A program made the position numbers and the translations under genes. Under the pieces are notes generated by a model, which saw nothing but the letters and a program-made list of their open reading frames with translations, was not told the origin of the DNA and ran no database searches. Shown here one piece after another: positions 7,214 to 60,978 of a stretch of DNA of 64,000 bases (its first letter is position 1; every line of letters begins with the position of its first letter). The stretch is from Candidatus Acidiferrales bacterium (lineage in GTDB: Bacteria; Bacteroidota; Ignavibacteria; Kryptoniales; JAKASW01), in assembly GCA_035515795.1 (NCBI GenBank), contig DATJAY010000012.1, positions 24,532 through 88,531 on the forward strand, in the 5' to 3' direction.

Positions 7214-7959
7214 CTACGCAGGCAAAGACGCAGGATGTTGAGTCTCTTTGGCAGAGATATTCAAAGCGCAAGACCGCCTCGATAAAAAAAGAGCTTGTGC
7301 TCTTTTATATGTATCTCGTAAAATTCGCCGCAAGGGGAATAAGCCTTCCTCCGCGATGCGTATTCAATAATGACGATCTTATGAGCATTGGGATCATCGG
7401 ACTCAGCGAAGCGATCGAGAGATTCGACCCCTACCGTGGAGTGAAGTTTGAAACGTACGCCTCACAGCGAATCCGTGGGATCATGCTGGATGAGATAAGG
7501 AAAGTCGACTGGCTCCCGCGGTCGATCCGTGACAAATATAAGAAGGCCTGGAAATCGCTGAGCGAGCTTGACATGGATAGAATCGACGGCGAGCAGTATG
7601 CCCAGGCCATTAACATGACGGTCAGAGAGTTTGATCGGATAAAAGGTTACCTTGCGAATTCGGAAGCGGTATCACTCACGAAGAGCATCGGAGACGACAT
7701 GACTCTTGAAGATGTGGTAAGCGGTGACAGCGAAGTCGTCGAACAATATGAAGACGACGAAACGAAAGAGCAGCTTGTCGAGATATTGAAGCAGCTTCCT
7801 GAGAGAGAGCGTATGGTGATGACTCTTTACTATTACGAAGAAATCACTTTCAAAGAAATCGGAAAAATCCTAGGCATAAGCGAATCGAGAGTCTCTCAAA
7901 TCCATTCCGAAGTTCTCGATAAAGTCAAGGATCTCTTCAGAAAGGCAGTCGAACTATGA
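7210..7959 (+). CDS. fliA: Flagellar sigma factor sigma-28 (FliA)
   Basis: 249 aa. Region 2 reads IGLSEAIERFDP..GVKFETYASQRIRGIMLDEIRK. Region 4 reads LPERERMVMTLYYYEEITFKEIGKILGISESRVSQIHS. Confidence 0.9.
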   Translation: MTTQAKTQDVESLWQRYSKRKTASIKKELVLFYMYLVKFAARGISLPPRCVFNNDDLMSIGIIGLSEAIERFDPYRGVKFETYASQRIRGIMLDEIRKVDWLPRSIRDKYKKAWKSLSELDMDRIDGEQYAQAINMTVREFDRIKGYLANSEAVSLTKSIGDDMTLEDVVSGDSEVVEQYEDDETKEQLVEILKQLPERERMVMTLYYYEEITFKEIGKILGISESRVSQIHSEVLDKVKDLFRKAVEL

Positions 7960-9122
7960 TAGAGGTTGGACAATTGACTGACAAATTATCATCGATAAGA
8001 GAGCTCCCCACCTTTCCGACTACGGCGTTGGAAGTGATGAGGCTCGCAAGCGACGCGGAAACGAGCGCAGCAGAACTTTCTCGAATAGTTTCAAGAGATC
8101 CTGCGCTTTCGGCGAGAATACTTCGAGTTGCAAACTCGCCGTATTACGGCTTTGCTAAGAAGATTTCGACGATCGAATGGGCAATAGTAGCCCTTGGTTT
8201 CGAGACGCTTCGCGAGACCGTGCTGTCCCTGACCTTGATCGATCTCTTCAGAGGCGCGGCAATGAAAAACTTCGATCCGCGAAAATTCTGGAAACATGCA
8301 GTCGATACCGCATGCGCAGCGAGGTCGCTCGCGAAGGAAATGAAGAATAGAGTTCCCGGCGAGGCTTATGCTGCCGGTTTGCTCCATGATATCGGAGTCC
8401 TTGTCCTGTATAGGTTTTTCCCGGACGATTTCGCCGAAATTCAAAAATTGGTCGGTCGTGACGCCATGACACTTTCTCAGGCAGAGCTCGTGGTGGTCGG
8501 AACATCTCATGCCGACATCGGAGCATGGCTTGCAGAAAAATGGAATTTTCCTCTGAATTTTGTTGAGGCGATACGATATCATCATGCGCCGGGCTCTGCC
8601 CAAATCAATCCCGAGTTGACCGCGATAGTCCATGTGGCAAATCAGATTGCTTGCTCAGATGGTTATTCATGCTCTGATGATCCGTCAAAATTTGATCCTG
8701 CCGCGGTCCAAATAGTGGGCATCGACAAGCTTGGAGTCTCGGTCGCCTCGCTCGCCGATAAGTATATAAATGATGACTCTTCTTTGGCTGTGAGTATCAA
8801 AGTTCCAATCATGGACTATGCTCTTGGAGATGACGGCCATGACGGGAAAAGAAAGCATAAGAGATCTCTAACGGAAGACACGACCGAAGAGACACTCCGG
8901 AATTTTTTCAAGGCGGCGATTAAGCTCCTCCCGACGACCGAGAGACTCGTGCTGACTTTGAAGCTCTTTGAAGGCTTGGATATGAAGCAGGTTGCAATAG
9001 TGCTGGGGTATGATGAGGCAAGAGTTGCGGAGTATTACAAGAACGCCGTTTCGGTTCTTCAACAAATGGCAGAACGTGCGATACTTACAAACAGGTTGGA
9101 CCAATGGAAAACGAGATACTAA
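7956..9122 (+). CDS. HDOD domain protein with a C-terminal sigma-70 region-4-like HTH
   Basis: The N-terminus shows HDOD hallmarks (LPTFPTTALEVMRL, ANSPYYGF, GLLHDIGVLVL, IRYHHAPG). The C-terminus (nt ~8925-9080) reads LLPTTERLVLTLKLFEGLDMKQVAIVLGYDEARVAEYYKNAVSVLQQ. The start overlaps the fliA stop. Confidence 0.8.
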   Translation: MIEVGQLTDKLSSIRELPTFPTTALEVMRLASDAETSAAELSRIVSRDPALSARILRVANSPYYGFAKKISTIEWAIVALGFETLRETVLSLTLIDLFRGAAMKNFDPRKFWKHAVDTACAARSLAKEMKNRVPGEAYAAGLLHDIGVLVLYRFFPDDFAEIQKLVGRDAMTLSQAELVVVGTSHADIGAWLAEKWNFPLNFVEAIRYHHAPGSAQINPELTAIVHVANQIACSDGYSCSDDPSKFDPAAVQIVGIDKLGVSVASLADKYINDDSSLAVSIKVPIMDYALGDDGHDGKRKHKRSLTEDTTEETLRNFFKAAIKLLPTTERLVLTLKLFEGLDMKQVAIVLGYDEARVAEYYKNAVSVLQQMAERAILTNRLDQWKTRY

Positions 9123-9964
9123 AAGAGAAAGTTCAGAATATTATCCAGCTTCCCGCTCTCCCGGCGATTGCGGTGGAGGTGGCTTCGCTCATCGACAACC
9201 CGAACACGAGCGTCTCGAGGATCACGCAGGTAATTTCCGCTGATCAGGTATTGACAGCGAAGGTGCTTAAGATCGCGAATTCTCCATTCTATGGATTCCA
9301 GAAAAAAATATCGACACTCGATTTTGCCATCATGGTACTCGGCTTCGATTCTCTCAAGGAAATCCTCATCAGCGTCTCGTTGATAAGTGCATTCAAGAAA
9401 AAACAGGACAAGTATTTCGACTCGCGTGAATTTTGGGAGCACTCGCTAGCATCTGCCATTGCAGCACGTACTCTGGCGAGGCAATTGGGATACAGGATAA
9501 GCGGTGAGTCGTTTGTCGCGGGGCTTCTCCACGACATCGGCATCCTCGTCACCCACCAGTATTTCTACGAGGATTACAAGAGAATTGTCGAAGCGGTTAC
9601 GGACGGGAAAGCAACGTTCCAGGATACGGAGCAGGAAGTGTTGTTTGCTACACATGGAGAGATAGGCGCATGGCTTGCCGAAAGATGGAATCTCCCCGAC
9701 CAGCTTATCGAAACGATAAAATTTCATCACAAGCCCGAACTTGCGGAAAGAAATCCCCAGCTGACCGCACTGATCCATTTTGTCGATTACTTGTGTCATA
9801 AACTTCAGATCGGCATGTTCTCTTACGAAAGGGTTGAAACCTACAATCCTCAAGCTCTGAAAACTCTGAATTTGTCCGAGTCGGAGGTCACCCAATCTTT
9901 CCTGGATACATTCGGGTCGAGACTGCGTCAAGATCTGGAAAAAACTTTTGTCGGGATAATCTGA
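9104..9964 (+). CDS. Stand-alone HDOD domain protein, paralog of the preceding N-domain
   Basis: Motifs LPALPAIAVEVASL, ANSPFYGF, GLLHDIGILV and IKFHHKP. It overlaps the upstream gene by 19 nt. Confidence 0.85.
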   Translation: MENEILKEKVQNIIQLPALPAIAVEVASLIDNPNTSVSRITQVISADQVLTAKVLKIANSPFYGFQKKISTLDFAIMVLGFDSLKEILISVSLISAFKKKQDKYFDSREFWEHSLASAIAARTLARQLGYRISGESFVAGLLHDIGILVTHQYFYEDYKRIVEAVTDGKATFQDTEQEVLFATHGEIGAWLAERWNLPDQLIETIKFHHKPELAERNPQLTALIHFVDYLCHKLQIGMFSYERVETYNPQALKTLNLSESEVTQSFLDTFGSRLRQDLEKTFVGII

Positions 9965-9985: not shown

Positions 9986-11377
9986 ATGAAAAAAGAAGTT
10001 GTTGAACAGGAATGTGTGAAGACGAGCGTCACTGATGCCGTCGAAGTCGTCGAGCGGTTCATGGAAACGCGCGAAAGTTATGTCCGCGCACTGGAAACTG
10101 CCGTTCAGGCATTAAAAAACAAAATCGACTTTCATGAAAAAACGGAAAGCACGATAAAGCAATCGATCGATGAATTGCTGGCTGTCCAACGGCTCGGCAA
10201 TATCATTAGCACCTCGAGCGATTCTGTCTCGGTCTTCGATTCATTGCTTGATCTCACCCGTCAGGTCATCCCCGTCGAAGAGAGCATGATTTTCGAAGTC
10301 GGAAATTCCAGATCGCGTGTCAATCCGTTTCTTCAGATATGCACGGAATATATGATGAAAAGTTGTCAGCATTTGTTGGAGGAAGGAATTCTCGATTGGG
10401 TAATCGAACAGAAAAAGACGACTGTGGTTCCCGATTTAAATTCTTCGGTGGGGGAAATAGGCGAGCGGAATTTTGTCGTGGTGCCGCTCGTACTGAGGAG
10501 CGAAGCGATTGGAGTTTATGTGATTCATACCGAAAGAGTCAGCAAGGCTCTTTCCGAACACGATTTGGCACTTCTCGGCGTGCTCGCAAACCAGGCGGCG
10601 GTCGCCATAGAGAACCTCAGAAATGTTGAAAAACTCCGGAATGCAGCCGATGAATTGAAGAAATCACAATCGCAGATGGTTCACGCTGCAAAGCTTGCTT
10701 CGCTTGGCGAACTTGCCGGTGGCGTGGCACACGAGATAAATAATCCTCTCCAAATTCTGCTCGGCCATGTCGCCCTTCTTTCGCAAGGCAAGGATGTCGA
10801 GCACAGAATCGAAATCATACGAAACCAGGTCCAACGGATCGCACAGATTACCAGGCAGCTTGTTTCATTCTCACGAAGCGTTCCGGACGAGCTTGATCAC
10901 GAGCCCCTGAACGTCAACTGGGCGATCGATGAAATAATCGCTTTGGTGGACTACCAATTCAAAAATCGCGGGATTGAGTTTGACTTGAGATATTCGGATG
11001 ATCTTCCGCCGCTCGATTCCAATAAGAATTATCTGCAGCAGGGTTTTCTCAACTTACTCTTGAATGCCAAGGACGCGATGCCTAACGGCGGCAAGATGCT
11101 GATCTCTACGGAGTATCATGACGGAAAGATATTCATCCGTTTTTCAGATACCGGTGTCGGGATCAAGAAAGAAAACATGGCAAAGATATTCGAGCCTTTT
11201 TTCACGACAAAAGAACCTGGCAAAGGGACAGGATTGGGACTTTCGATAACGAGAGGAATCATAAGGAAACTCAGTGGAGAAATTAAAGTTGACAGCGTCG
11301 AAGGTCGTGGTACGACATTTACGATTTTCATACCTGTAAAGAAGAGTTTAGAGACAACCAACGGAGGAAATAGATAA
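9986..11377 (+). CDS. Soluble GAF-domain sensor histidine kinase
   Basis: No TM segment. It has a GAF-like region (...NFVVVPLVLRSEAIGVYVIH...), H-box GVAHEINNPL, N-box LLLNAKDAM and G-boxes DTGVGI / GTGLGLS. I chose the ATG at 9986; the tracked start is the TTG at 9980. Confidence 0.85.
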   Translation: MKKEVVEQECVKTSVTDAVEVVERFMETRESYVRALETAVQALKNKIDFHEKTESTIKQSIDELLAVQRLGNIISTSSDSVSVFDSLLDLTRQVIPVEESMIFEVGNSRSRVNPFLQICTEYMMKSCQHLLEEGILDWVIEQKKTTVVPDLNSSVGEIGERNFVVVPLVLRSEAIGVYVIHTERVSKALSEHDLALLGVLANQAAVAIENLRNVEKLRNAADELKKSQSQMVHAAKLASLGELAGGVAHEINNPLQILLGHVALLSQGKDVEHRIEIIRNQVQRIAQITRQLVSFSRSVPDELDHEPLNVNWAIDEIIALVDYQFKNRGIEFDLRYSDDLPPLDSNKNYLQQGFLNLLLNAKDAMPNGGKMLISTEYHDGKIFIRFSDTGVGIKKENMAKIFEPFFTTKEPGKGTGLGLSITRGIIRKLSGEIKVDSVEGRGTTFTIFIPVKKSLETTNGGNR

Positions 11378-12048
11378 TGTTTGGGATGATATTATGTTTG
11401 CTTTCGGATTCAACTGCGGTGGACATTAGGGCGCTGGTGTCCCGGGACATTGACAAGGCGACTAACGCATCCGGAAGTGCAAGTCAGAGTTTTGTCCAGA
11501 GGGTTTTAGAAGTGCCCGAATTTGTGCTGATTACCGAGCTTGCTATGATTCTGATAATGGCCGGGCTGTTTGTTGCTCTGGTAATTCGATTCCGCAAGAT
11601 AGCAAAGGAACAGAATCGCAGAATCGCCTACGTGCAGAAGATAAAGGCGAAAATGCAGCCCTCCATCTCGCGGGCGGAGGTCGAGAGAATTCTCAATCAA
11701 ATTGCGACCGAAAAATTTAAGGCTTACGAGATGGCACACGGAAATTATTATGTTGACTATGATGGCAAGCTCGACTCTGATGAGGCGATCCACGAGATGG
11801 CAAGGTCACACAAAATGGAATCCGAACGCCTGAACTTCGCGCTGTCCGCCGCCTCACAGTCGGCGAGGCAAGGCGGGGCGAAATTTAAAGAGGCGTTCGC
11901 TCTTGTGAGCGAAGATTCTAACCTGACCGTCCTCGCACGTCAACTAAACATGGGAAAGGGTGAGCTTGAGCTTATACTTGCCCTCAAGAGAAGCAAGATC
12001 GCAAATTCAAAACATTTGTCCGGGAGCACCGAAAGGAACGGGTTATGA
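11377..12048 (+). CDS. Single-pass membrane protein with a C-terminal HTH-like motif (possible SwrB-like flagellar accessory protein)
   Basis: One TM segment (FVLITELAMILIMAGLFVALVI) and the C-terminus NLTVLARQLNMGKGELELILALKR. It has a TAATG overlap with the kinase stop and an ATGA overlap with flgF. Confidence 0.6.
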   Translation: MFGMILCLLSDSTAVDIRALVSRDIDKATNASGSASQSFVQRVLEVPEFVLITELAMILIMAGLFVALVIRFRKIAKEQNRRIAYVQKIKAKMQPSISRAEVERILNQIATEKFKAYEMAHGNYYVDYDGKLDSDEAIHEMARSHKMESERLNFALSAASQSARQGGAKFKEAFALVSEDSNLTVLARQLNMGKGELELILALKRSKIANSKHLSGSTERNGL

Positions 12049-12794
12049 TCAAAGGAATTTACACGAGCGCGCTTGGACTGCTGCCGCTTCAAAAGAAACT
12101 TGAAGTGATTGCAAACAATCTTGCCAACGTGAACACGACGGCGTTCAAAAGGGACGACGCCTTTGCAAACGAGTTGATCTCTGCAAAGACTCTCCTGCAT
12201 AATGGTACAACCGATCCCGTTGAGAAAGACGTCGATGAACAAACCACCACTGATTTTTCGCAGGGCACGCTTCGCGAGACAGGCAATACTCTAGATGTAG
12301 CAATTGACGGTCAGGGTTTTTTTGCGGTAGAAACAAATGATGGAGTAAAGCTCACGCGTGACGGTTCGTTTACGATCTCGACCGATGGAACTCTTGTTAC
12401 AAGAAATGGCGATGCCGTCATGGGAACCGGCGGATCGATCAAAATTGACGACATACAGGATCTGCAAAAGAGCCAGCTCGTAATTGAGCGCGACGGAGTG
12501 GTCAAGGCAGGGAACAAAATCTATGGACAAATTCAAATTGTGTCTCCTGAGAATTTGAATCAGCTTTCGAAATCCGGAGAAAATTCGTACACGTTCAAGA
12601 CCGATAGTGCCTTAAAGCAAATCGATCCGTCAGCATATACGGTCAGGCAGGGATTTTTAGAAGGCTCGAATGTCAACCCGATCGATGAAATGGTCGCGAT
12701 GATCCAGATTCAACAGAATTTCGAAGCCGGCCAGAAGGCAATCCAAAGTCAGGATACATCGCTCGGGCAATCGAACGATGTCGGCAAGATATAG
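12045..12794 (+). CDS. flgF: Flagellar proximal rod protein FlgF
   Basis: N-terminal rod signature LEVIANNLANVNTTAFKR and C-terminus GFLEGSNVNPIDEMVAMI. Confidence 0.85.
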   Translation: MIKGIYTSALGLLPLQKKLEVIANNLANVNTTAFKRDDAFANELISAKTLLHNGTTDPVEKDVDEQTTTDFSQGTLRETGNTLDVAIDGQGFFAVETNDGVKLTRDGSFTISTDGTLVTRNGDAVMGTGGSIKIDDIQDLQKSQLVIERDGVVKAGNKIYGQIQIVSPENLNQLSKSGENSYTFKTDSALKQIDPSAYTVRQGFLEGSNVNPIDEMVAMIQIQQNFEAGQKAIQSQDTSLGQSNDVGKI

Positions 12795-19795: not shown

Positions 19796-20572
19796 ATGAA
19801 GAAAACCATAGAGATAGGCACGCTTGCCGGTTTAGTTTTTGGAATAGTTTCCATTTTTGGCTCGTTCATGATGGAAGGTGGAAAGTTAGGCGCCGTTATA
19901 ATGGTTCCAGCGATGACAATCGTATTTGGCGGGACGTTTGCTACGGCCATGATAGGAACGTCGTTCAAGCAGTTCGCGAGAATCTGGAGGTTCGCCCTGG
20001 TCGCTGTCATGCCGCCAAAGCACGATGTGGATAGAATCATAGAATTGATCGTCCAGTATTCCACGAAGGCCAGAAAGGACGGCTTGCTTGCTCTCGAGAA
20101 AGAATTGAACAACATCCCCCATGCGTTTTTGAAAAAGATGCTTCGGTTTGCAATAGATGGAACCGATCCGCAGACGATGCGCTCTGTCGCCGAAGCGGAG
20201 ATGGGTTTCTTAAACGAGAGACATGTATCTAATGCCGCGGTGTTCCAGAAAATGGGCGGCTATTCGCCGACAATGGGAATCATAGGTACGGTTATGGGTC
20301 TGATAGTGACCCTTGCAAATGCCGGCGGAGATCCGAATGAACTGATCCATCATATAGCCACAGCGTTCATCGCGACACTCTGGGGAATTTTCATGGCAAA
20401 TATTGTGTGGCTTCCGATTGCCGACAAGTTGAAGACGATCCATGGCGAAGAAAATCTCATAATGGAAGTTACGTTGGAGGGAGTCCTGTCTCTTCAGGCG
20501 GGAGAAATTCCGGCAATAGTGAGAGCTAAGTTAAGATCGATGCTGCCGAGCCGCGAACAGGGAGAAGTCTGA
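19796..20572 (+). CDS. motA: Flagellar stator protein MotA
   Basis: Four TM segments, a MotA/ExbB channel signature (PTMGIIGTVMGLI, TLWGIFMANIVWLPIADKL), and motB follows. Confidence 0.9.
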   Translation: MKKTIEIGTLAGLVFGIVSIFGSFMMEGGKLGAVIMVPAMTIVFGGTFATAMIGTSFKQFARIWRFALVAVMPPKHDVDRIIELIVQYSTKARKDGLLALEKELNNIPHAFLKKMLRFAIDGTDPQTMRSVAEAEMGFLNERHVSNAAVFQKMGGYSPTMGIIGTVMGLIVTLANAGGDPNELIHHIATAFIATLWGIFMANIVWLPIADKLKTIHGEENLIMEVTLEGVLSLQAGEIPAIVRAKLRSMLPSREQGEV

Positions 20573-21276
20573 TGAAGAAAAAAGCAGAAGGCGTACACGA
20601 CAATCTTGAGCGCTGGCTCCTGACCTACGCTGATTTGATTACTCTTCTCCTCGGTTTGTTCGTGATATTGTACGCGAGTTCACGCGTCGACATAGCAAAG
20701 TACAAAGAAGTAATGTCGGCCTTCGTTAATTTGTTCGGTGGCGGGCCTGCGGCCACCGGGAATCTCATGGGCGAGAAGGGCGTCATGAACAACCTGTCGC
20801 CGGTATCTCATGAAAAAGAGTCGGTCCAGTTGGAAAAAAAAGTTGAAGCGGCTGTCGGTGAAGCGCTGAAAGGCGGCGGGGCTATAATTACTCATGATGA
20901 ACGCGGAGTAACCGTACACTTTCTCGAAAAGTTTATGTTTGAGGTGGGGAAATCGGAGATACACCGGAACGCGTACCCCGTTCTCGACACGCTCGGCTTT
21001 TTGCTGCAGTCAATTCCGAATCGAATTTATATCGAAGGCCATACCGACAATACACCGATTCACACGCCTCAATTTCCTTCCAACTGGCATTTGTCGGTCG
21101 CGCGCTCGCTGAATGTCGGTTATTACCTTTTGCAGAATTATCAAATTAGACCCGAGAAAGTGTCCATCATGGGTTACGGTGAATTCCACCCGCTTGTTCC
21201 GAACGACACGCCGTTACACAAAGCAGAAAATAGGAGAGTCGACATTGTCATACTCAACAGCACAGCAAAGGATTAA
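20572..21276 (+). CDS. motB: Flagellar stator protein MotB (OmpA-like C-domain)
   Basis: N-terminus WLLTYADLITLLL with the conserved Asp. The C-terminus is IEGHTDNTPI...NWHLSVARS...NRRVDIVIL. Confidence 0.9.
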   Translation: MKKKAEGVHDNLERWLLTYADLITLLLGLFVILYASSRVDIAKYKEVMSAFVNLFGGGPAATGNLMGEKGVMNNLSPVSHEKESVQLEKKVEAAVGEALKGGGAIITHDERGVTVHFLEKFMFEVGKSEIHRNAYPVLDTLGFLLQSIPNRIYIEGHTDNTPIHTPQFPSNWHLSVARSLNVGYYLLQNYQIRPEKVSIMGYGEFHPLVPNDTPLHKAENRRVDIVILNSTAKD

Positions 21277-21277
21277 G

Positions 21278-21691
21278 GTGAAGACAGAAGTGAAAACGAA
21301 GCTAAAGACTATACAGTTTGGCGAACTGGAATTTGAGCCGAGCATTGTTTATCATTTTCCCGGCGGTTTGCCGGGATTTGAAGAATTCCACGAGTTTATC
21401 GTGATCGACGATAAAGATACCGAGCCATTAAAGTGGCTGTTGTCGGTTGACGAGCCGAATATTGGCTTCCCGGTTTTGGAACTCCTGCAGGCTGCTCCTG
21501 AGCTGAAGAGCGAGATTCAGAAAGAAGAATTGAATCTGTCAAGCACCTTAGTCGTCGTCACGCTGCATCGCGATCCGGAACCGCTGACGGTGAATTTGAA
21601 AGCTCCGATTATTCTTAACAACTCTTCCAAAACCGGCAGGCAGGTAATATTGGATTCGGATAAATATTCCACCAAATACGAAATTAAATGA
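21278..21691 (+). CDS. fliW: Flagellar assembly factor FliW (CsrA antagonist)
   Basis: The sequence IQFGELEFEPSIVYHFPGGLPGFEEFHEFIVI is a typical FliW N-terminus. I chose the in-frame GTG at 21278, just after the motB stop. The tracked ATG at 21113 lies inside motB. Confidence 0.8.
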   Translation: MKTEVKTKLKTIQFGELEFEPSIVYHFPGGLPGFEEFHEFIVIDDKDTEPLKWLLSVDEPNIGFPVLELLQAAPELKSEIQKEELNLSSTLVVVTLHRDPEPLTVNLKAPIILNNSSKTGRQVILDSDKYSTKYEIK

Positions 21692-21706
21692 CCAAGGAAG
21701 GACAAA

Positions 21707-21988
21707 ATGCTAGTCTTAACAAGGAAGTTAGGGGAAGCCATCAAGATAGGCGACAAGGTAAAAGTCGTAGTCGTCTCAATCGATGGTACAAGTGTAAAGT
21801 TGGGGATCGAAGCTCCAGAAGAAATTCCTGTTCACCGGGAAGAAATCTACAAGAAGATAGCTGCGGAGAACGTGGCGGCATCATCGGAAATTGATAAAGA
21901 GAAGCTGAAGATTTTAAAAAATATTTTGTCGAAAAATCGCGGCTCGGGTTCGGGCGGGCGGTCTTCTTCGGGAAAGAAAAATGGCTAA
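21707..21988 (+). CDS. csrA: Carbon storage regulator CsrA with an extended Gly/Ser/Lys-rich tail
   Basis: Core [49 protein letters not shown] ~35-aa tail follows, ending [16 protein letters not shown]. Confidence 0.9.
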
Positions 21989-22697
21989 GCCGCAGCGGAA
22001 AACGGTTCTTGTCATAGACGACGACAAGATGGTACAACGCTATATTGAAGAATTCTTTAAAAGACTCAAATTCGTTTTCTATGCCGCTTCCGATGGATAT
22101 GAAGGGCTGAAGTTCGCACTGTCTTCAAAACCTGATTTGATATTCCTGGACATCATGATGCCGCGCTTCGACGGATTCAAGACGCTCCAGGTTCTTAAGT
22201 CAAATGATTTGACGAAAAATATCCCGGTCGTGGTGATGACCGCATATTCCGACAGAATAAATGTGGTTTCCGCATGCAAGCTTGGCGCCGCTGCGGTAAT
22301 TACGAAACCCTTGACGGAAGAAATTTTTTTTGAAAAACTGAAGCAGATCTTCGGAGAGAAGTTTGTCCGGTCCGTGATTCCGCGCGATCCAAAGGAAACT
22401 GAAAATCCATTCGGCGTAAAGGAGGACGAGTACAATGAGGTCGTTCGCGGAATGGTCGAGGAATTCTTGAAATACTATTCGGCAGAAGTAGAAGACCTCG
22501 AGCGGGCAGTTCACGAAAAAAACGTCGATGTGATTCGAAGGATTACGCACAGTCTCCGCGGGACCGGCGGATCATTCGGTTACGGCGGGGCGGCGGCGCT
22601 CGCAGTCAGGCTCAACGAACTGGTTCACACATCGCCGATAGACTGGGAAGAGGCAGAGGAGGTTTTAATCATGCTAAAAAATAAGTTGCAAAGATGA
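21981..22697 (+). CDS. Response-regulator receiver fused to an Hpt phosphotransfer domain
   Basis: REC motifs [16 protein letters not shown] and ITKP. The Hpt-like helix is [20 protein letters not shown]. The start overlaps the csrA stop by 8 nt. Confidence 0.8.
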
Positions 22698-23077
22698 AAG
22701 CACTAGTAGCAGACGATGTCCCGATGATCCGGAAACTTGTCGAGTTCCATTTGAAGCAGATAGGATTCGATATATCAAATGCCGCTGATGGAGCAGAAGC
22801 GTTGACGCTCGCAAGCAACTCGAAATATGATTTGATAATCTTGGACATAATGATGCCCGAGATGGACGGGCTTGAAGTTCTGCACCGCATTCGCTTGGAC
22901 TCAATAAACAAGGCTACGCCGGTTATTATCATGACGGCTTACAGCGATTATTCGAACGTCAAGAAAGCGGTGGAATACGGAGCAAATGATTTTATTGTAA
23001 AGCCCGTCGAGCAGGTTTCTTTCAGAAAAAAGGTGATCGATGCGGTCAGTGTGAAGCCGCCGGAGTCGGTAAAGTGA
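22694..23077 (+). CDS. Single-domain CheY-like response regulator
   Basis: 127 aa with ALVADD, LIILDIMMPEMDG, MTAY and FIVKP. It has a 4-nt overlap with the upstream gene. Confidence 0.85.
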   Translation: MKALVADDVPMIRKLVEFHLKQIGFDISNAADGAEALTLASNSKYDLIILDIMMPEMDGLEVLHRIRLDSINKATPVIIMTAYSDYSNVKKAVEYGANDFIVKPVEQVSFRKKVIDAVSVKPPESVK

Positions 23078-24591
23078 AACTCTCGTTATCCATGATCGTT
23101 AAGAACGAAGCGAGATTCCTGCCGGGGTGCCTGGAAAGCGTAAGGGATCTCGTGGATGAGATAGTAATCGTGGACACCGGCTCGACGGACGAAACAAAAT
23201 CCATCGCCGGAAATTTCGGCGCGAAAGTCTTTGATTTTGAATGGAAGAACGACTTTTCACTTGCACGAAATGAATCGATGCGAAGAACAACCGGAGATTG
23301 GGTCCTCTACCTCGATGCGGATGAAAGAATCGAAAAATGTCATCACGAGAAGATCAGGAAACTCATTTCGTCCGGAGGCGGAGATGCACTCCTGCTGAAT
23401 CTAAAAAGCAAAATAGGCGTCAAAGAGGATTCGCAGTACCATCTTGTCTCTTATCCGCGGCTGTTCAGGAAAATGAAGGGAGTTGCATTTACAGGAAAAG
23501 TTCATGAGCAGATTAACAATTCGCTCCTTGCCGCGCGTGCAAGGATTGTCCAAACCGACGTAACCATTATCCATCTCGGCTATGCGCAAGATGAAGATGT
23601 CATTCGCGAGAAGGCGAAGCGAAATTATCTTCTGCTCCTCGAACAAATTGAACGACGGGAAAATTACGGCTATGCTCTCTATCAGCTTGGCCAGACGGAG
23701 ATGGTCCTTGGTGATGTCGAAAAGGGAATCGCGCATCTATACGAGGCGATTGCCGCCGGAGGTTTTGGCAAACCTGTTGAGGCTTCGATTTACGGAATCA
23801 TCGCAGAGAAGAAATTCAATCAGGGAGACACAGAAGGCGCGTTGGAAGCATGCGATAAGTCTCTCGCCGCTGCTCCGTCGCAATCATTTGCTTTGATAAT
23901 GAAAGGCGATATTTATCTCAAATACGGCAGGTATCGCGAATCTGTCGATTCATTTATGAGAGCACTTGAAGAATATCGTTCCAGCGTTCTTCTGGGGAAA
24001 GCTGCAACGGCAATCGAGCCGGTATTCGATATCGACGTTCTTTATTCGAAAATCGCTGCGGCTTCTTCCCTTGGCGGAGATTTGGAAGCGGCAAAGAAGT
24101 ACTATGGGCTTGCCGCCGAGACGAAAGGGAAGCCCGAAAAGGTGGCGAGGTATTTTGAATTTTTGGTGAAAAATAAAATGTGGGATGATGCCGTTGAGGC
24201 TTCGAAGAGATTTGGTGATTACGAAAACGAAGGCTGGTATTTAAGGATCGTCTCCTCTGCCTGCATTGATACTGGAAATTTCCTGGAAGCGGCGAGGCTG
24301 CTTGAAAAAATTGCGGACCATGATGCTGTTTCGTTGTCGAGTCTGGCTAATTGTAAGATGAAAGTCGGTGATTTCGAAGGTGCGGAATGTGCATTTCGCA
24401 GTGCAATGAATTTAGGATATGACGATATGCAGGGTTTGGAACTCTTTGGACTGATTCAGTTTAAGCTCGGGAAATTTTCTGACGCAGCCGAGACTCTCGG
24501 AAGAATTGTCGAAGCGAATCCGGAAAATGCGAAAGCGCGGAAGTTTGTTCAGGCGGCCAGGGAACGAATAAGAAATCTTGCTGCAGTATGA
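23074..24591 (+). CDS. Family-2 glycosyltransferase with C-terminal TPR repeats (candidate flagellin/flagellar glycosyltransferase)
   Basis: The N-terminus is GT-A type (LSLSMIVKNEARFLPGCLES...VDTGSTDET...YLDADE). About 300 aa of TPR-like repeats follow. The start is GTG with a GTGA overlap with the upstream stop. Confidence 0.8.
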   Translation: MKLSLSMIVKNEARFLPGCLESVRDLVDEIVIVDTGSTDETKSIAGNFGAKVFDFEWKNDFSLARNESMRRTTGDWVLYLDADERIEKCHHEKIRKLISSGGGDALLLNLKSKIGVKEDSQYHLVSYPRLFRKMKGVAFTGKVHEQINNSLLAARARIVQTDVTIIHLGYAQDEDVIREKAKRNYLLLLEQIERRENYGYALYQLGQTEMVLGDVEKGIAHLYEAIAAGGFGKPVEASIYGIIAEKKFNQGDTEGALEACDKSLAAAPSQSFALIMKGDIYLKYGRYRESVDSFMRALEEYRSSVLLGKAATAIEPVFDIDVLYSKIAAASSLGGDLEAAKKYYGLAAETKGKPEKVARYFEFLVKNKMWDDAVEASKRFGDYENEGWYLRIVSSACIDTGNFLEAARLLEKIADHDAVSLSSLANCKMKVGDFEGAECAFRSAMNLGYDDMQGLELFGLIQFKLGKFSDAAETLGRIVEANPENAKARKFVQAARERIRNLAAV

Positions 24592-39403: not shown

Positions 39404-42235
39404 TTGAAGCTGGAAAGCTACTCCGATCAGGAACTTGCCGAGCGCACAAGCTCCGTCCGCGCCGTCCTTTTGTTGTTGGCGATAGCCGTTACTCTCTATG
39501 CGGCCATCATGTCAATCGTATTCAGCGAGCACATCTTCAGATGGATTGGTTTGGAGGCCTTGACGGTTACGTTCACATTTGTTGCTTTGTGGTTGAACGG
39601 AAGGGGCCATGTCCGGGCTGTCGTCATTTGCGCCCTTATATATTTCTGGATGGTGATAACCGGATTTGCGCTGACTTCGGGTGGCATAAGAGGTCCGGCT
39701 GCTGTCATGTATTTGGGTCTCGTCTTCAGCGCAGGCCTGTTCTTTGGAAAGAATGTCGCGATCTTCGCAGCCATCGTATGCAGCCTCTCCGACCTGGGCT
39801 TCGTGTACCTGAGCGCTCATGGCCTCCTGCCTGCTCCTATATCACATTTTAATGATATCAGGTTCTGGATCGCGCATACTTTTGTCCTTTCCCTGTCCGT
39901 AATTCTTCCAAGTGTGGTGACGCGAAGCATAAGAAATGCTCTGCATAAAGCAACTGATGAAATAAATGAGCGTAAATCAGCGGAAGCTGCATTGTTTACC
40001 TCCAGACAAATGCTCCGCTTAGTACTCGATACGATTCCACAGCGCGTATTTTGGAAAGATCAGAACCTGAAATATCTAGGCTGCAACGAATCATTTGCGG
40101 AAGACTGCGGTTATGAAAAGCCTGAAGACGTTATTGGTTTGGATGATCACGACATAGCATCGGTCCAAACGGCGGATCTTTACCGGGCTGATGACCGCGA
40201 GATAATTGAAAAAGATTTGCCGAAACTCATGTATGAGGAGCCTCAAGTTAGATCGGACGGTGCGCTGGCCTGGTTGATAACCAGCAAAGTTCCGCTGCAT
40301 GACGCGGACGGAAAAGTCATAGGAGTGCTGGGAACCTATGAGGATATCACCGATAGAAAAAATGCCGCGAGGGCGGTCCTCGAGAGTGAATCGAAATACC
40401 ACAGGTTGATTGAATCCATGCCTGATGGATACTATCGCAGCACGCCGGAGGGCAAGTTTATCGACATCAATCCGGCTTTTGCAAGACTCCTTGGCTATAC
40501 GCGGGAAGAATTACTTGAGATGGACATACCGAATGCTCTCTATTTTGACAAATCGGAGCGGGACGATCTCGTGAAGGACCCCGAATCCAAGTCGGGAACC
40601 GAAATCTATCGGCTCAAGAGAAAAGACGGGACTGAAGTCTGGCTCGAAGACCATGCGCGTTATGTTCGAGATGATCAGGGAAAGATGGTGTACCACGAAG
40701 GAATCTGCCGCGACATCACGGAGAGAAAGCGAGCCGAGGAAGCACTGAAGCGGCAAAGATTATTGTTCGAGAATTTTGCAGATGTAATTCTTTACTTCAG
40801 GCACTCCGACGGCAAAATTATTGAAGCAAACAGAGCCGCCGAGACTGCTTATGGTTATTCCCGTGATGAGCTGCTCACCAAGACTATCTATGACTTCAGT
40901 GTCAATGAAACCTCCGAAGAGGTGCAGGCGCAAATAGGCAAGGCTTACTCAAGTGGAATTGTTCTTGAAACGGTACACCGGCGCAGAGACGGGTCTACTT
41001 TTCCGGTCGAGGTAAGATCGGGTGGGCTGACGATGGGAGGCGAACGTGTTCTGGTAAGCGTTATCCGCGATTTGACCGAACGCAACCAGCTTCAGGAACA
41101 GCTTATCCAATCGCAGAAGCTGGAAGGACTGGGACTCCTCGCAGGTGGAGTCGCTCATGATTATAACAATATCTTGAACGTTATCATGGGCTACACGGAT
41201 ATCCTGAGATCAAAATTGGAAAAAGATGATCCCGACAGGCAACGGCTTGAGGTCATCATGTCTGCCGCAAACAGGGGGGCTGCGCTGACGAGACAACTTC
41301 TCGTTTTTGCAAGGAAAGATGTCGTATCACCGCGAGCCATCAACATGAATTCTTCCATAGAGTCAATTCGGAAAATGATGGAGACGATAATCGGCGAAAA
41401 TATTAAACTCGTCTCTATTCCCGGAGATCGCCTGTGGAACGTTTACATAGATCCTTCGCAGCTGGATCAAGTCATAATGAACCTGGTGACAAACAGCAGG
41501 GATGCAATCGATGGAGTCGGGACGATAAGCATCAAGACTTTCAATATGCATGTGCACGAGAAAAGCGCCGAGAGACCTGTCGATTTGAGTCCGGGCGACT
41601 ACGCAGTCCTGTCGATCACCGACACCGGACGAGGAATGCGGGAAGATGTTTTGAAAAGATTATTTGAGCCGTTCTTCACAACGAAACCGAAAGGGCGGGG
41701 AACCGGGCTTGGACTTTCGACGGTGTATGGGATAGTGAAACAAAACAATGGAGCCATCGATGTGGCAAGTAAACCGGGAGTGGGGACAAGGTTTCAGATC
41801 TTTTTGCCCCGCTATTGCGGCGAACCGGAGGAGCTGGAAGAGGACATTTCTGAAGAGCCATTGAAGGGAACTGAGACAGTCCTCGTTGTCGAAGATCAGG
41901 CTGAACTTCTTGATCTGGTAAAATTCAGTTTGGAAGAGTTTGGGTACAGCGTACTATCGGCGATAGATCCTCACCAGGCGCTTTTGATTTGTGAAGCATT
42001 TCCGAAAAAGATCGACTTGCTGCTGACCGATGTAATCATGCCCACCATGAGCGGCAAGCAGCTGAGCAAGAGAATTCTCGCCCTGAAACCCGACACCAAA
42101 GTCCTGTATATGTCAGGCTACACGGCGAACGAGCTCAATCATCACGGCGTTCTTGCGGATGATATCAATTTCATACAAAAGCCCTTTAATGTGATCGACC
42201 TTCTGAAGAAAATGCGGGGTGTGCTGGACAAGTAG
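39404..42235 (+). CDS. Membrane-bound PAS-domain hybrid sensor histidine kinase with a C-terminal receiver
   Basis: About 5-6 N-terminal TM helices and three PAS-like modules. H-box GVAHDYNNIL, G-boxes DTGRGM / GTGLGLS, and REC (LLLTDVIMPTMSG...KP). The start is TTG. Confidence 0.85.
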   Translation: MKLESYSDQELAERTSSVRAVLLLLAIAVTLYAAIMSIVFSEHIFRWIGLEALTVTFTFVALWLNGRGHVRAVVICALIYFWMVITGFALTSGGIRGPAAVMYLGLVFSAGLFFGKNVAIFAAIVCSLSDLGFVYLSAHGLLPAPISHFNDIRFWIAHTFVLSLSVILPSVVTRSIRNALHKATDEINERKSAEAALFTSRQMLRLVLDTIPQRVFWKDQNLKYLGCNESFAEDCGYEKPEDVIGLDDHDIASVQTADLYRADDREIIEKDLPKLMYEEPQVRSDGALAWLITSKVPLHDADGKVIGVLGTYEDITDRKNAARAVLESESKYHRLIESMPDGYYRSTPEGKFIDINPAFARLLGYTREELLEMDIPNALYFDKSERDDLVKDPESKSGTEIYRLKRKDGTEVWLEDHARYVRDDQGKMVYHEGICRDITERKRAEEALKRQRLLFENFADVILYFRHSDGKIIEANRAAETAYGYSRDELLTKTIYDFSVNETSEEVQAQIGKAYSSGIVLETVHRRRDGSTFPVEVRSGGLTMGGERVLVSVIRDLTERNQLQEQLIQSQKLEGLGLLAGGVAHDYNNILNVIMGYTDILRSKLEKDDPDRQRLEVIMSAANRGAALTRQLLVFARKDVVSPRAINMNSSIESIRKMMETIIGENIKLVSIPGDRLWNVYIDPSQLDQVIMNLVTNSRDAIDGVGTISIKTFNMHVHEKSAERPVDLSPGDYAVLSITDTGRGMREDVLKRLFEPFFTTKPKGRGTGLGLSTVYGIVKQNNGAIDVASKPGVGTRFQIFLPRYCGEPEELEEDISEEPLKGTETVLVVEDQAELLDLVKFSLEEFGYSVLSAIDPHQALLICEAFPKKIDLLLTDVIMPTMSGKQLSKRILALKPDTKVLYMSGYTANELNHHGVLADDINFIQKPFNVIDLLKKMRGVLDK

Positions 42236-45056: not shown

Positions 45057-45863
45057 TCAGAACGCCCAGCGCCAGTGATCATCCCAGTCGCCGCATCTTC
45101 CGTTATTGAACGAAGCTCTTATCGCCTGCTGGATCATAAGGTAAGTGCGCAGCGACATGTCCGTCGGATCCAGAATGGCTCCGTTGAACGGATTGACGAA
45201 CCATGATCCCATGTTGAAGTTGAGCGCAACGTTCACCATCGTTGTCGGATTCGTAATCGTGAAGGTCCCTCTCACCTTGAACTCAAGGTTCTGATTGTCT
45301 TTGAATTCGAACGGAACCCACGCGGTGTCTTTATGAACCGCTCCCCAGACTACTATCGAGTAGTTTGTCGTAGAGGAGTCGTCCGTGCTGCCGGGCTTGT
45401 GATTAAAGTCGTCGCTGTCCCAAAATCTCTCGGCAGGTGCGAGCCTGTGAATATCGAATTTTATTCCAGTATAAGTTCCTGCCGGGAGGGTATCGCTGGC
45501 AAAACTTATCGCTGCAGTATCGCCCACGTGTACCGCGAAGGGTCCGCGGAAAGTCACGCTGGAGTTGTCCTCATCGACGTTGATGAACGGGATGCTCGTG
45601 CTGGTATCAACCGTGACCGTATCGATGTCGGACTCAAACCTTATTCTCGCGAAGACTACGATCGCACTGTCGATGCGTATAGAATCTACTCCGGCCGTTG
45701 TGGCGCTTGCTTTCTTAAACCCAACCGGCGTACCTGTATTTGAAAACGCGACCGACATAGTAACATTCCCTGATGAAGATGAGGAAACGGGGTTGGTCGT
45801 CTTTGTACATCCGAAAACAATGAATGAAATTAAAAGACAGCCTATCGCTTTCCGAAAAGACAT
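45057..45863 (-). CDS. Hypothetical lipoprotein
   Basis: The internal ATG at 45863 gives MSFRKAIGCLLISFIVFGC with lipobox FGC. The composition suggests a beta-rich protein. The tracked start at 46001 adds an implausible leader. Confidence 0.6.
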   Translation of the reverse strand: MSFRKAIGCLLISFIVFGCTKTTNPVSSSSSGNVTMSVAFSNTGTPVGFKKASATTAGVDSIRIDSAIVVFARIRFESDIDTVTVDTSTSIPFINVDEDNSSVTFRGPFAVHVGDTAAISFASDTLPAGTYTGIKFDIHRLAPAERFWDSDDFNHKPGSTDDSSTTNYSIVVWGAVHKDTAWVPFEFKDNQNLEFKVRGTFTITNPTTMVNVALNFNMGSWFVNPFNGAILDPTDMSLRTYLMIQQAIRASFNNGRCGDWDDHWRWAF

Positions 45864-46126
45864 ATTTCTCTCCTTTTCTTTTTCTGCATAATGTTCATTT
45901 GATGTGCCGAAAAAAATAGACGAAAATGATTTGTTTTGGTTTAAATGTTCTTGAGAGGGCGAAAAGATTGCTCGGTTTCCGTGCAAAGTTTGCACGCGCA
46001 TGTCAGTTGGGTTTTTGAAGGAAGGGATAATTTTTCAGCAGCAGCGCGGACCGTTGCTGCGGTCGGAGAAAAATCCTTTCAGGAATTCTCTGAACGCGTC
46101 CCAGAAGCGCATTATGAGAAAATTGT

Positions 46127-52034: not shown

Positions 52035-53354
52035 TTACTTGATTACGAGATTTATCTCTTTGAAAGTCGTGCCATCGGCACCCGTATTGACGCCGTTCGT
52101 GTATTCGCTGAAGTGATATTGCAGATCAAGGTGATCGGCTAAGAAGGCGAGAGGTCCATCCTCGATGTCAACTATATCAAAAGCTGCAAGTAACTTGAGA
52201 AGTCCACTTAGCTTGACGCTCGTTCCAAGAGTAGAATAGGAATATCCGATTCCTTGATAGGTAACTCCAAATGGAAATTCCACACCTTCAAAGGAGCCGC
52301 CGCGGACGTAAAGGAATTCCGCCAATTGTACCTGCCAACCTTTTCGCAAGGCGACTTTCCCGTATGTCCTTCCAAGAATCAGGTTGTCGATAGGCTCAAT
52401 GTCGCCGATGCCGGATTTATAAAAGTTCTCGTAGGAATATCCATATCCATTATTGCTTACTGGGGTTATGGCAATCAGTTTTGCTGCGGCAAGGAGATCC
52501 TCTGCTTCCCTGGCCCAGATAAACGAAAACAGATTCCAGTTTCTGTTCTTGATATCCGTCTTTATGCCGATTTCGAAATTTAATCCAAGGGTTGCGGTTC
52601 GGGGTAAAAGCGGGCTCGGTGGATAGGACACGTATTCCCCTATGTTGCGTCTCGCGTATCCTATGTTTATGTTAAATATGGGGCTCATATCTGGCGACAG
52701 AATAATCGGTTGATCGGCAAGATGAGAGGCAATTTCCACAACTGGTATCTGTGCCATGATACCGTAGTCATGAGCATTTGCTTTGGGGCTGAGTTGGTTC
52801 CCGGTCGAATCAAGACCTGCTTCTTCTAAAGCTACACTTTTGAAAGTATACCCTAATCCCAATTTCACGAACCAATCGAATCCTACTCCGATGGCGTAAT
52901 CTTCTTGTCTCTCCGACAGGTGGAAGAAACCAGACGTGTCCATCTGCGCAGTCGTCCATTCAACTGTTCCTTGATCAAGAAATACTCTTGAATAACCTGC
53001 GCCTAAGCTGCATTGAAGAGGAAGTTTCAAAAAGTTTCCTAAATTCATCCCGATGTTTGCCGCTGAGGTATTCAAAGAATGATCACTCGTCCACGAGATA
53101 TTTGGCAGCCAGGGGGTTTTTTCTACATATATGCTTGTGTTCAAAAATCCGGTGAGGCTGAAAAGACCGAGCTGAGCCGGGTTCGCGATCGTCGCAGTTG
53201 CATTGTCAGAAGGAAGAGACGCGGCGATTCCCGCCATTCCATTCGCATCGGCGGAAGGTTGAATCTCCATGACTCCAGCGTCAAGTAGTCCTTGAGCATC
53301 TGCAATTTGGATTGTTGCGCTAAAGAGGCACAACACCAAAAGAATTCTTTTCAT
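52035..53354 (-). CDS. PorV-like outer-membrane beta-barrel protein, copy 1
   Basis: The signal peptide starts at the internal ATG (MKRILLVLCLFSATIQIADAQG). The N-terminal motif is ADANGMAGIAASLPSDNATATIANPAQLGLF. It is a paralog of the next gene. Confidence 0.55.
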   Translation of the reverse strand: MKRILLVLCLFSATIQIADAQGLLDAGVMEIQPSADANGMAGIAASLPSDNATATIANPAQLGLFSLTGFLNTSIYVEKTPWLPNISWTSDHSLNTSAANIGMNLGNFLKLPLQCSLGAGYSRVFLDQGTVEWTTAQMDTSGFFHLSERQEDYAIGVGFDWFVKLGLGYTFKSVALEEAGLDSTGNQLSPKANAHDYGIMAQIPVVEIASHLADQPIILSPDMSPIFNINIGYARRNIGEYVSYPPSPLLPRTATLGLNFEIGIKTDIKNRNWNLFSFIWAREAEDLLAAAKLIAITPVSNNGYGYSYENFYKSGIGDIEPIDNLILGRTYGKVALRKGWQVQLAEFLYVRGGSFEGVEFPFGVTYQGIGYSYSTLGTSVKLSGLLKLLAAFDIVDIEDGPLAFLADHLDLQYHFSEYTNGVNTGADGTTFKEINLVIK

Positions 53355-53405
53355 TTTTCGACCTCGTTCTTTGTTTGATCGCAAATGTTTCTTGTTGATG
53401 GAATA

Positions 53406-60213: not shown

Positions 60214-60978
60214 ATGGAAAACGATAATAATGCAATTCACAAGCAGACCTTTCGCCTCCACTCCTACGAAGTAGATCAGCGCGGGGTTGCAAGACCTGAC
60301 ATACTTTTATCTTTCATGCTCGACAGCGCATGGGGACACACCAGGGATACTGAATTCAGCTACTCCGAGTTGAACGACGAAGGCCAGCTTTGGGTGCTGT
60401 CGCGCTTCCTCGCGGTGTTCCATGATCTGCCGAAGTGGGACGATGAGATAACGGTCGAAACATGGGGAAAGGGAACGGACAAAATTTTCGGGCTGAGGGA
60501 TTTCATGGTTTGTTCTCAATCGGAAAAAAAATTCCTCTCTGCAACATCGGCCTGGCTGATTATAGACAGGAAAACCTCCCGCATCCAGAGGATTGATGCG
60601 CTTGACAGAAAATTTCCGACGCAGCTTTACCGGGACGAAATAGAGACCAAGTTGGAAAAAATAGAGACACGGGATGCAGATAAAACCGATTTCAAACACG
60701 TCGTGCGTTCTTCGGATCTTGATGTGAATAGGCACGTCAACTCGTCAAAGTATCTGCTGTGGATGCTGGACAGTTTTCCGGCTGAATATTCTGAGAAAAA
60801 AAATCTAAAATCTTTCGAGATCAATTTCTTATCGGAAGCAAAACTTTACGATGAGATATATGTCTCCAGCATGCGGGACGAGTCGGTCTTAAGCGGCGGC
60901 GAAAATTTTTATTGTGAAGTGAGGCGCGAAAGCGGCGACGCGGAATTGTGCCGGGCCAGGATCGTGTGGAATGATTAG
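60214..60978 (+). CDS. Acyl-ACP thioesterase (FatA/B-like hotdog fold)
   Basis: FRLHSYEVDQRGVARPDILLSFMLDSAWGHT...WVLSRF...DLDVNRHVNSSKY. I prefer the ATG at 60214 because the tracked start at 60157 spans the hairpin at 60163-60181. Confidence 0.8.
   Translation: MENDNNAIHKQTFRLHSYEVDQRGVARPDILLSFMLDSAWGHTRDTEFSYSELNDEGQLWVLSRFLAVFHDLPKWDDEITVETWGKGTDKIFGLRDFMVCSQSEKKFLSATSAWLIIDRKTSRIQRIDALDRKFPTQLYRDEIETKLEKIETRDADKTDFKHVVRSSDLDVNRHVNSSKYLLWMLDSFPAEYSEKKNLKSFEINFLSEAKLYDEIYVSSMRDESVLSGGENFYCEVRRESGDAELCRARIVWND

Follow-up and report, generated by a model that had tools for sequence, protein, structure and literature searches.

In a 64,000-nucleotide (nt) stretch of DNA from an uncultured soil bacterium, on contig DATJAY010000012.1 (assembly GCA_035515795.1, positions 24,532–88,531 of the forward strand; the whole stretch is henceforth the window), the genes for FliW and CsrA are directly followed by three genes encoding a protein that joins a receiver (REC) to a histidine phosphotransfer (Hpt) domain, a single-domain receiver, and a glycosyltransferase extended by TPR repeats (GT2-TPR). 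The analysis presented here concerns these five genes, located at window positions 21278–24591 on the + strand. fliW (21278–21691; 137 amino acids (aa), GTG start; Pfam FliW) is separated by 15 nt from csrA (21707–21988; 93 aa; Pfam CsrA), behind which lie the genes for the REC-Hpt protein (21981–22697; 238 aa, ATG start; Pfam Response_reg and Hpt), the single-domain receiver (22694–23077; 127 aa, ATG start; Pfam Response_reg) and GT2-TPR (23074–24591; 505 aa, GTG start; Pfam Glycos_transf_2 and several TPR families). The 3′ end of csrA and the start of the REC-Hpt gene share eight nucleotides (ATGGCTAA), whereas the next two junctions are 4-nt overlaps, ATGA between the REC-Hpt and receiver genes and GTGA between the receiver and GT2-TPR genes. 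Every domain of the module scores above its curated Pfam cut-off, and the start codons, including the GTG codons of fliW and GT2-TPR, agree with the N-termini of orthologues. The original prediction, made from the sequence alone, that a fliW–csrA operon runs on into these three genes via overlaps of 8, 4 and 4 nt is borne out by the gene coordinates and the Pfam matches, with the overlaps being exact in the sequence and recurring in relatives.

Immediately upstream are motA (19796–20572, + strand; Pfam MotA_ExbB/MotA_N) and motB (20572–21276, + strand; Pfam MotB_plug/OmpA), with gaps of −1 nt between the two and +1 nt between motB and fliW. They belong to a flagellar gene string on the + strand that begins with export genes (fliP, which is cut by the window start, fliR, flhB, flhA, flhF and flhG), proceeds through fliA, two genes for HDOD proteins, a gene for a GAF-HisKA-HATPase kinase and a gene for a 223-aa protein without a family match to the rod, ring and junction genes flgF, flgG, flgA, flgH, flgI, flgJ, flgN, flgK and flgL, and ends with motA, motB and the five genes under study. 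The intergenic gaps from flgH to GT2-TPR lie between −17 and +15 nt throughout, and GT2-TPR is followed by a 251-nt spacer and then by an unrelated gene for a 3-hydroxyacyl-CoA dehydrogenase and housekeeping genes. Given this tight packing, the spacer after GT2-TPR and the fact that no convincing internal terminator was found in the string, we infer that the five genes are the 3′ end of a late flagellar operon co-transcribed at least from flgH to GT2-TPR. Scans for sigma-70-type promoters and for terminators yielded nothing beyond the expectation from shuffled sequence, and a search with the sigma-28 consensus gave no match, though consensus sequences of this kind are perhaps inappropriate for the lineage in question. 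No matches were obtained when the window was scanned for Rfam families and tRNAs.

Features of the encoded proteins

The REC-Hpt protein consists of a receiver (approximately residues 9–119; Response_reg, 85.5 bits), a linker, and an Hpt domain (approximately residues 148–237; 33.8 bits against a cut-off of 24.6). The receiver aspartate in the motif LIFLDIMMP and the Hpt helix, both pointed out in the original prediction, are indeed present and contain D57 and H190, respectively. Both residues are invariant in 41 orthologues, as are D14, T87, K109, G194, G197 and G200, the Hpt helix combining H190 with a G-x-x-G-x-x-G pattern; D13 is conserved in at least 90%. The 127-aa receiver keeps the equivalents of the DD pair, of D57, T87 and K109, and of the aromatic residue at 106 (four receivers compared). 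Because the acidic pocket, the phospho-accepting aspartate, the Thr/Lys switch residues and the phospho-accepting histidine are all kept, both receivers and the Hpt domain look phosphorylatable. The linker contains the motif E-N-P-F-G-V (residues 141–146, encoded at 22401–22418), of which P143, F144 and G145 are invariant in the 41 orthologues and which could be a docking peptide; the P-F-G motif is absent from the Ignavibacteria REC-Hpt orthologues compared.

An AlphaFold model of the REC-Hpt protein (predicted local distance difference test score, pLDDT, of 81.6) consists of the receiver and four long helices, and a Foldseek search with this model returned generic receiver matches only, being uninformative on the Hpt part. 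Over its full length the protein can be aligned in one piece with the REC-Hpt portions that terminate hybrid kinases (positions 667–883 of the BarA model, P0358 and many others), and multi-receiver hybrid kinases dominated the matches in an exhaustive profile search. In effect, it thus resembles the REC-Hpt half of an unorthodox kinase, separated from the kinase core. Its relatives make up approximately 55 full-length clusters (at 90% identity) reaching down to 55% identity, after which the scores fall sharply to receiver-only matches. A scan of species-representative genomes with generic receiver motifs retrieved mostly Gammaproteobacteria, with no REC-Hpt orthologue among the matches listed.

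The 127-aa receiver (Response_reg, 105.5 bits) is 77% identical between relatives whose REC-Hpt proteins are 55–71% identical (same genome pairs), and the 127-aa receivers form a clade of their own (100/100) in a neighbour-joining tree of receiver domains. Its origin as a recent tandem duplicate of the REC-Hpt receiver, to which it is 44% identical, was considered and rejected, as the corresponding sister grouping appeared in 1/100 bootstraps. The label ‘CheY-like’ initially attached to this protein holds for its single-domain architecture but not for membership of the CheY family. It scores 78.7 bits against the CheY equivalog model NF007901 (cut-off 189), less than against a PleD-type receiver model, and no cheA, cheW or receptor genes were encountered among the annotated open reading frames (ORFs) of the window; judging by these scores, it is not a CheY equivalog, and ‘CheY-like’ describes its architecture only. 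Having no output domain, it must therefore work by binding another protein.

The GT2-TPR protein begins with a GT-A domain (approximately residues 1–195; Glycos_transf_2, 74.5 bits) and continues with about 300 aa of TPR-like helical repeats (TPR matches at residues 200–500). This layout, recognized already in the original prediction, is confirmed by Pfam and by an AlphaFold model (pLDDT 91.6) in which the repeats are all-helical. By sequence, the best match of the GT domain in the PDB is GmaR from Listeria (22ao_A; E = 2e-31, residues 4–194), with 36% identity over 188 aligned positions (51 of 103 in the first block) and the motif DADE aligned on DADE; the parts of GmaR beyond its GT domain (TPR, linker and antirepressor) gave no PDB sequence match from GT2-TPR. 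GmaR of Listeria monocytogenes glycosylates flagellin (with N-acetylglucosamine, GlcNAc), carries a TPR domain after the GT domain and then a linker and an antirepressor domain for binding MogR, and is bifunctional (PMC9638930). In a Foldseek search with the GT2-TPR model, SunS and ThuS came out on top (E = 2e-15), followed by the TPR domain of OGT; the sequence match to SunS/ThuS has an E-value of approximately 1e-21, and the score against the SunS family TIGR04195 is 90 bits (cut-off 350). All 25 GT2-TPR orthologues compared keep DTGSTD and DADE unchanged, which argues that enzyme activity is under selection. Since the GT domain is closest to that of GmaR and the fold closest to SunS and ThuS, GT2-TPR is most likely a protein glycosyltransferase with flagellin as its substrate, and the initial suggestion of a probable flagellin-modifying enzyme gains support from the same two comparisons. 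Membrane segments are absent from all module proteins, which fits cytoplasmic glycosylation before export. The GT2-TPR orthologues form about 40 clusters. The nearest homologues outside the clade of the window are proteins of 750–780 aa with a GT2-TPR-GT2-TPR layout (encoded at positions 10001–12301 of locus L003 and 10001–12250 of L004), which occur in Ignavibacteria, Bacteroidota, Chloroflexota and others.

FliW matches Pfam PF02623 with 97.9 bits (cut-off 25) and the NCBIfam FliW equivalog models with 99–101 bits, which is under their strict cut-offs, and its length (137 aa) and N-terminus agree with those of orthologues. CsrA scores 85.5 bits in Pfam (cut-off 27), 85.8 bits against TIGR00202 (cut-off 70.1) and 88.2 bits against NF002469 (cut-off 73), and carries a basic, poorly conserved C-terminal extension (21869–21988). 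The partner switch of FliW, CsrA and flagellin is established in Bacillus subtilis, Campylobacter jejuni and Clostridioides difficile, and what we take to be the equivalents of R44 and N55 of the B. subtilis CsrA are present in the window protein. A Pfam scan of window ORFs of at least 120 aa identified no flagellin, in agreement with the original prediction, FlgL being the sole carrier of flagellin domains. A tblastn search of the window with a Firmicutes flagellin and E. coli FliC gave no match either, but it is insensitive, as it missed FlgL too.

Gene order next to csrA in related bacteria

Named relatives of the REC-Hpt and GT2-TPR proteins are labelled Candidatus Kryptoniota, and 14 contigs of at least 15 kb are common to the lists of homologues of the two. 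The same five genes are found at L001/L002 (REC-Hpt 55% identical to that of the window), L006 (71%) and L095, with an overlap of csrA by 8 nt where measured. As the five genes and the −8 junction recur in relatives whose REC-Hpt proteins are only 55–71% identical, this is more than chance. Downstream of GT2-TPR, the gene content of L006 differs from that of the window, which indicates that the module ends with GT2-TPR and that its conservation is not mere genome collinearity.

A broader view is provided by 80 metagenomic FliW loci (a sample biased towards similarity to the window FliW) and eleven loci looked up individually, all annotated with profiles built from the proteins in hand. A receiver gene lies directly 3′ of csrA in 23 of the 80 FliW loci, with gaps of −14 to +24 nt, and in 14 of these 23 it is a REC-Hpt gene followed by a second motA/motB pair. 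Four arrangements, all sharing the order motB–fliW–csrA, can be distinguished by what follows csrA. Type A (the window, L001/L002, L006 and L095) has REC-Hpt, the 127-aa receiver and GT2-TPR. Type B, represented by 17 loci whose named members are Ignavibacteria, including Ignavibacterium album, has REC-Hpt, a second motA–motB pair, a 130-aa receiver and a REC-HisKA protein. Type C (6 loci) has a receiver of 207–222 aa with a Pro/Ser-rich tail and no Hpt domain, and type D (6 loci, including a Candidatus Kryptonium genome) has nothing; the Kryptonium cluster matches that of the window in the stretch from the GAF kinase gene to csrA. No receiver gene adjoins csrA in about 40 other loci with the order fliW–csrA or csrA–fliW and no motB upstream.

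The type B REC-Hpt proteins are 29–33% identical to that of the window over approximately 220 residues and keep the Hpt histidine, and the −8 nt overlap with csrA is seen also in several Ignavibacteria. In the receiver tree, the REC-Hpt proteins of types A and B group together (79/100) and are joined by type C (75/100). Judged by the synteny, the retained histidine and this grouping, the csrA-linked REC(-Hpt) is of old origin and common to several lineages, with the csrA-adjacent REC-Hpt representing an orthologous family of the window's clade and Ignavibacteria. The 127-aa receiver and GT2-TPR are, by the same comparisons, additions specific to the window's clade. Thus the survey of csrA neighbours that had been proposed reveals a gene order conserved in the window's clade, while csrA followed by REC-Hpt is also the usual arrangement in Ignavibacteria and not peculiar to that clade. 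CsrA measures 93–100 aa in the window's clade and 96–104 aa where the Hpt domain is missing, compared with 75 aa in the individually examined Kryptonium loci and 77–84 aa in most Ignavibacteria loci.

Several further observations were made on these genes. The type B loci (e.g. L089 10636–16622, L092 and L119) also encode a conserved, uncharacterized 215-aa protein; their second motA and motB products are only 23–24% identical to those of motA and motB in the window, and their REC-HisKA protein, being devoid of an ATPase domain, is possibly a histidine phosphotransferase. The type C receiver (L090 8782–9441, L117 7805–8467, L099, L102, L103 and L106; GC content of L090 approximately 32%) is of the REC-Hpt clade and carries an acidic, disordered-looking tail in place of the Hpt domain, the tails at L090 and L117 sharing the terminal peptide QKSIDSIK-LLLK. 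Two further stand-alone REC-Hpt proteins, P0420 and P0457 (264 and 266 aa), come from lineages absent from the loci surveyed and match types A and B at 27–38% identity, over the (near) full length in the best matches. An apparent fusion of CsrA with REC-Hpt, P0014 (332 aa; L005 177–1175), was considered as Rosetta-stone evidence and rejected, as it owes its existence to the loss of one nucleotide from a G run and was encountered on one short contig only (1368 nt). One G is missing from a GGG run relative to L006, the DNA being otherwise identical over the junction stretch compared, and P0014 is best explained by misassembly, or as a rare frameshift variant.

Elsewhere in the flagellar string, the two HDOD genes (7956–9122 and 9104–9964) lie directly 3′ of fliA, with overlaps of 4 and 19 nt, and are followed by the GAF kinase gene. 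The C-terminal segment of the first HDOD protein (388 aa) matches sigma-70 region 4 and FliA/WhiG models, and this protein could be a sigma-28 mimic or competitor. The 223-aa protein (11377–12048), whose gene lies between those for the GAF kinase and flgF and overlaps both, has one strongly hydrophobic segment and no family match except a weak one to DUF6115; it keeps its position in L001, and the position is occupied also in L087 and L088 (in the latter by a protein with a faint DUF6115 match). Four window ORFs of 314–480 aa have no Pfam match at E 1e-5 (52035–53384, 53406–54680 and 45057–46001 on the − strand; 60971–62413 on the + strand). Finally, the record is labelled Candidatus Acidiferrales (Acidobacteriota), and identical proteins are filed likewise; since the named relatives belong to Candidatus Kryptoniota and a Candidatus Kryptonium genome has a collinear cluster, this taxonomic label is probably wrong.

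Possible function of the module

The reading that we favour, and to which we assign a probability of roughly 50%, is that the 3′ end of the late operon combines a relay from REC-Hpt to the receiver with a flagellin-modifying GT2-TPR enzyme. FliW and CsrA would run the flagellin checkpoint, whereas one or more kinases would phosphorylate REC-Hpt on D57, from where the phosphoryl group would pass to H190 and on to the clade-specific 127-aa receiver. The latter would act by protein contact, most likely with motor, stator or filament-assembly machinery encoded by the same transcript, the GT2-TPR enzyme and the FliW–CsrA pair being alternative targets; a motor or stator target is indicated by the fact that the REC-Hpt orthologue adjoins a second stator in Ignavibacteria and that motAB lies just upstream here. 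GT2-TPR would be a cytoplasmic GT-A enzyme of the GmaR/SunS type, with the TPR arm most likely holding flagellin, which would be O-glycosylated before export. Several points weigh against this reading. The window lacks a flagellin gene that would serve as the target of CsrA or encode the substrate of the glycosyltransferase, the TPR part of the latter shows no sequence match to the TPR or antirepressor domains of GmaR, and its nearest out-of-clade homologues reside in non-flagellar neighbourhoods. The 127-aa receiver falls below the CheY equivalog cut-off and is, according to the receiver tree, not orthologous to the 130-aa receiver of Ignavibacteria. The organisms of the window's clade are uncultured, and the Kryptonium-type relatives carry the same flagellar cluster without the module, which must thus be dispensable for building a flagellum.

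As to the source of the phosphoryl group, the original prediction had the relay start from the soluble GAF-HisKA-HATPase_c kinase of the cluster (9980/9986–11377, + strand; domains by Pfam, no membrane segment) and run through REC and Hpt to the CheY-like receiver, so that late assembly, glycosylation or motor control could respond to a cytoplasmic signal. No other classical kinase is encoded in the flagellar cluster and no response regulator adjoins this one, while REC-Hpt, resembling the missing half of an unorthodox kinase, and the 127-aa receiver are the only receiver proteins there. The co-occurrence of the presumed partners, however, fails both ways in the loci compared. Orthologues of the kinase are kept in the Kryptonium-type loci L087 and L088 (58–61% identity within the portion that the edge of the locus leaves visible), which have nothing after csrA, and the 10-kb flanks of the Ignavibacteria REC-Hpt loci L089, L092 and L093 contain no match to it, with L089 and L092 featuring a PAS kinase further downstream instead. 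Moreover, the window encodes a hybrid PAS-PAS-PAS-HisKA-HATPase-REC kinase (39404–42235, + strand; domains by Pfam), and the only Hpt domain among the scanned window ORFs is that of REC-Hpt. A hybrid kinase ending in a receiver normally needs a separate Hpt partner, and this one could feed the Hpt domain directly as an alternative phosphodonor. A relay starting from the GAF kinase is therefore not supported and we regard it as unlikely; the kinase is still a candidate phosphodonor, its pairing with REC-Hpt being weakened rather than excluded by this comparison of locus flanks.

GT2-TPR might alternatively act on a protein other than flagellin or on a glycan, or be a TPR-based regulator or brake, similar to the GmaR anti-repressor or to EpsE, a GT2 protein of B. 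subtilis that serves as a flagellar clutch. The non-flagellar neighbourhoods of its closest out-of-clade homologues, a fold equally near to the peptide S-glycosyltransferases SunS and ThuS, and the lack of flagellin or sugar-biosynthesis genes nearby would be consistent with such a role, and GmaR itself is bifunctional (PMC9638930). Yet the invariance of DTGSTD and DADE points to selected enzyme activity, the gene holds a fixed place as the last one of a flagellar operon and is translationally coupled to it, the best solved relative by sequence is a flagellin glycosyltransferase, and neither a match to the GmaR antirepressor nor a MogR-like gene was seen. We thus deem these alternatives somewhat unlikely, though less so than a relay driven by the GAF kinase. 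A still less probable role concerns the REC-Hpt protein, which might act on the FliW–CsrA switch, contacting CsrA or FliW in a phosphorylation-dependent manner and so tuning flagellin translation. Such a role would account for the retention of the gene beside csrA while the downstream content changes: in three gene-order types, a receiver gene comes directly after csrA (gaps of −14 to +24 nt) and is itself followed by a receiver and GT2-TPR, by a second motAB and receivers, or by nothing, and one lineage has kept the receiver and lost the Hpt domain. Both the window's clade and several Ignavibacteria show the 8-nt overlap, and the C-terminal extension of CsrA is found in the window's clade and the Hpt-less type. 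Gene adjacency alone is, however, no proof of interaction, and the extension does not track REC-Hpt, as the CsrA proteins of Ignavibacteria are mostly 77–84 aa long. The only fusion of CsrA with REC-Hpt is almost certainly an assembly error, and Kryptonium and most bacteria run FliW–CsrA without any such protein. Equally improbable in our view is the more general proposition that the csrA-adjacent REC(-Hpt) is a phosphorylation-controlled third partner of FliW–CsrA, or links the switch to the choice of stator, and in the window's clade also gates flagellin glycosylation via the receiver and GT2-TPR.

All individual parts of the module are of known kinds. The linkage of csrA and REC-Hpt conserved across Ignavibacteria and the window's clade appears to be undescribed, as full-text literature searches retrieved no paper on it. 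FliW–CsrA is regarded as a self-contained, signal-free checkpoint that monitors nothing but how filament assembly stands. That two deeply separated lineages have kept a phosphotransfer protein translationally coupled to csrA, one with stator genes next to it and the other with a probable flagellin glycosyltransferase, suggests an input of two-component signals to late flagellar assembly or to motor function in some bacteria. Were REC(-Hpt) truly a third partner of the switch, kinases that sense the environment would have direct control over flagellin translation and over the make-up of the motor in Ignavibacteria and Kryptoniota-like bacteria, and only if the receiver acts on the FliW–CsrA switch or on stator choice would the interest of the system be high. 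The module constitutes a concrete and testable set of proteins, one of which occurs in the cultured Ignavibacterium album, and it offers a likely role for a widespread family labelled only ‘response regulator’ so far.

Comparison with known systems

As in known FliW–CsrA switches, fliW and csrA of the window adjoin each other at the end of a flgK–flgL late operon, but here the operon continues via overlaps into genes for REC-Hpt, a receiver and a glycosyltransferase, motAB lies directly upstream of fliW, and no flagellin gene is nearby. Loci of the Firmicutes type and most other surveyed FliW loci differ from the window in having no receiver gene adjoining csrA. The Ignavibacteria locus shares with the window the orthologous REC-Hpt right after csrA and an equally tight junction, sometimes with the −8 overlap. 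It has the order motAB–fliW–csrA–REC-Hpt–motA2–motB2–REC–REC/HisKA–(uncharacterized)–PAS kinase, and thus contains a non-orthologous 130-aa receiver in place of the 127-aa one, no GT2-TPR and, in its flanks, no GAF kinase.

In the unorthodox kinases BarA/GacS, TorS and ArcB (HK-REC-Hpt), which operate His-Asp-His-Asp relays, the C-terminal REC-Hpt aligns with the REC-Hpt protein of the window, whose kinase core is unfused and whose terminal regulator is devoid of a DNA-binding domain. The gammaproteobacterial BarA/UvrY system feeds into the control of CsrA. Unlike there, no Csr small RNA was detected in the window (no Rfam match), and the window CsrA is of the FliW-regulated type. In the late motAB–cheAW operon of E. 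coli, stator genes are co-expressed with phosphotransfer proteins, and Hpt shares the fold of the CheA P1 domain; the window differs in lacking the CheA kinase core, CheW and receptors, and in its receiver not being a CheY equivalog.

SunS and ThuS are the best structural match, one that spans the GT-A domain as well as the helical repeats, but the window protein is far under the SunS family cut-off, lacks accompanying genes for a glycocin precursor or its export, and is found in a flagellar context. From GmaR it differs in length (505 versus 637 aa), in having no match to the linker and antirepressor and a TPR part that is not detectably similar, and in the absence of MogR. What the two have in common is a homologous N-terminal GT-A domain (E = 2e-31, DxD kept) followed by TPR, cytoplasmic localization, and a gene that resides with flagellar genes. 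In C. difficile, flagellin glycosyltransferase genes occupy the same late flagellar region as fliW–csrA. Listeria GmaR provides the precedent for a flagellin glycosyltransferase encoded together with flagellar genes (PMC9638930).

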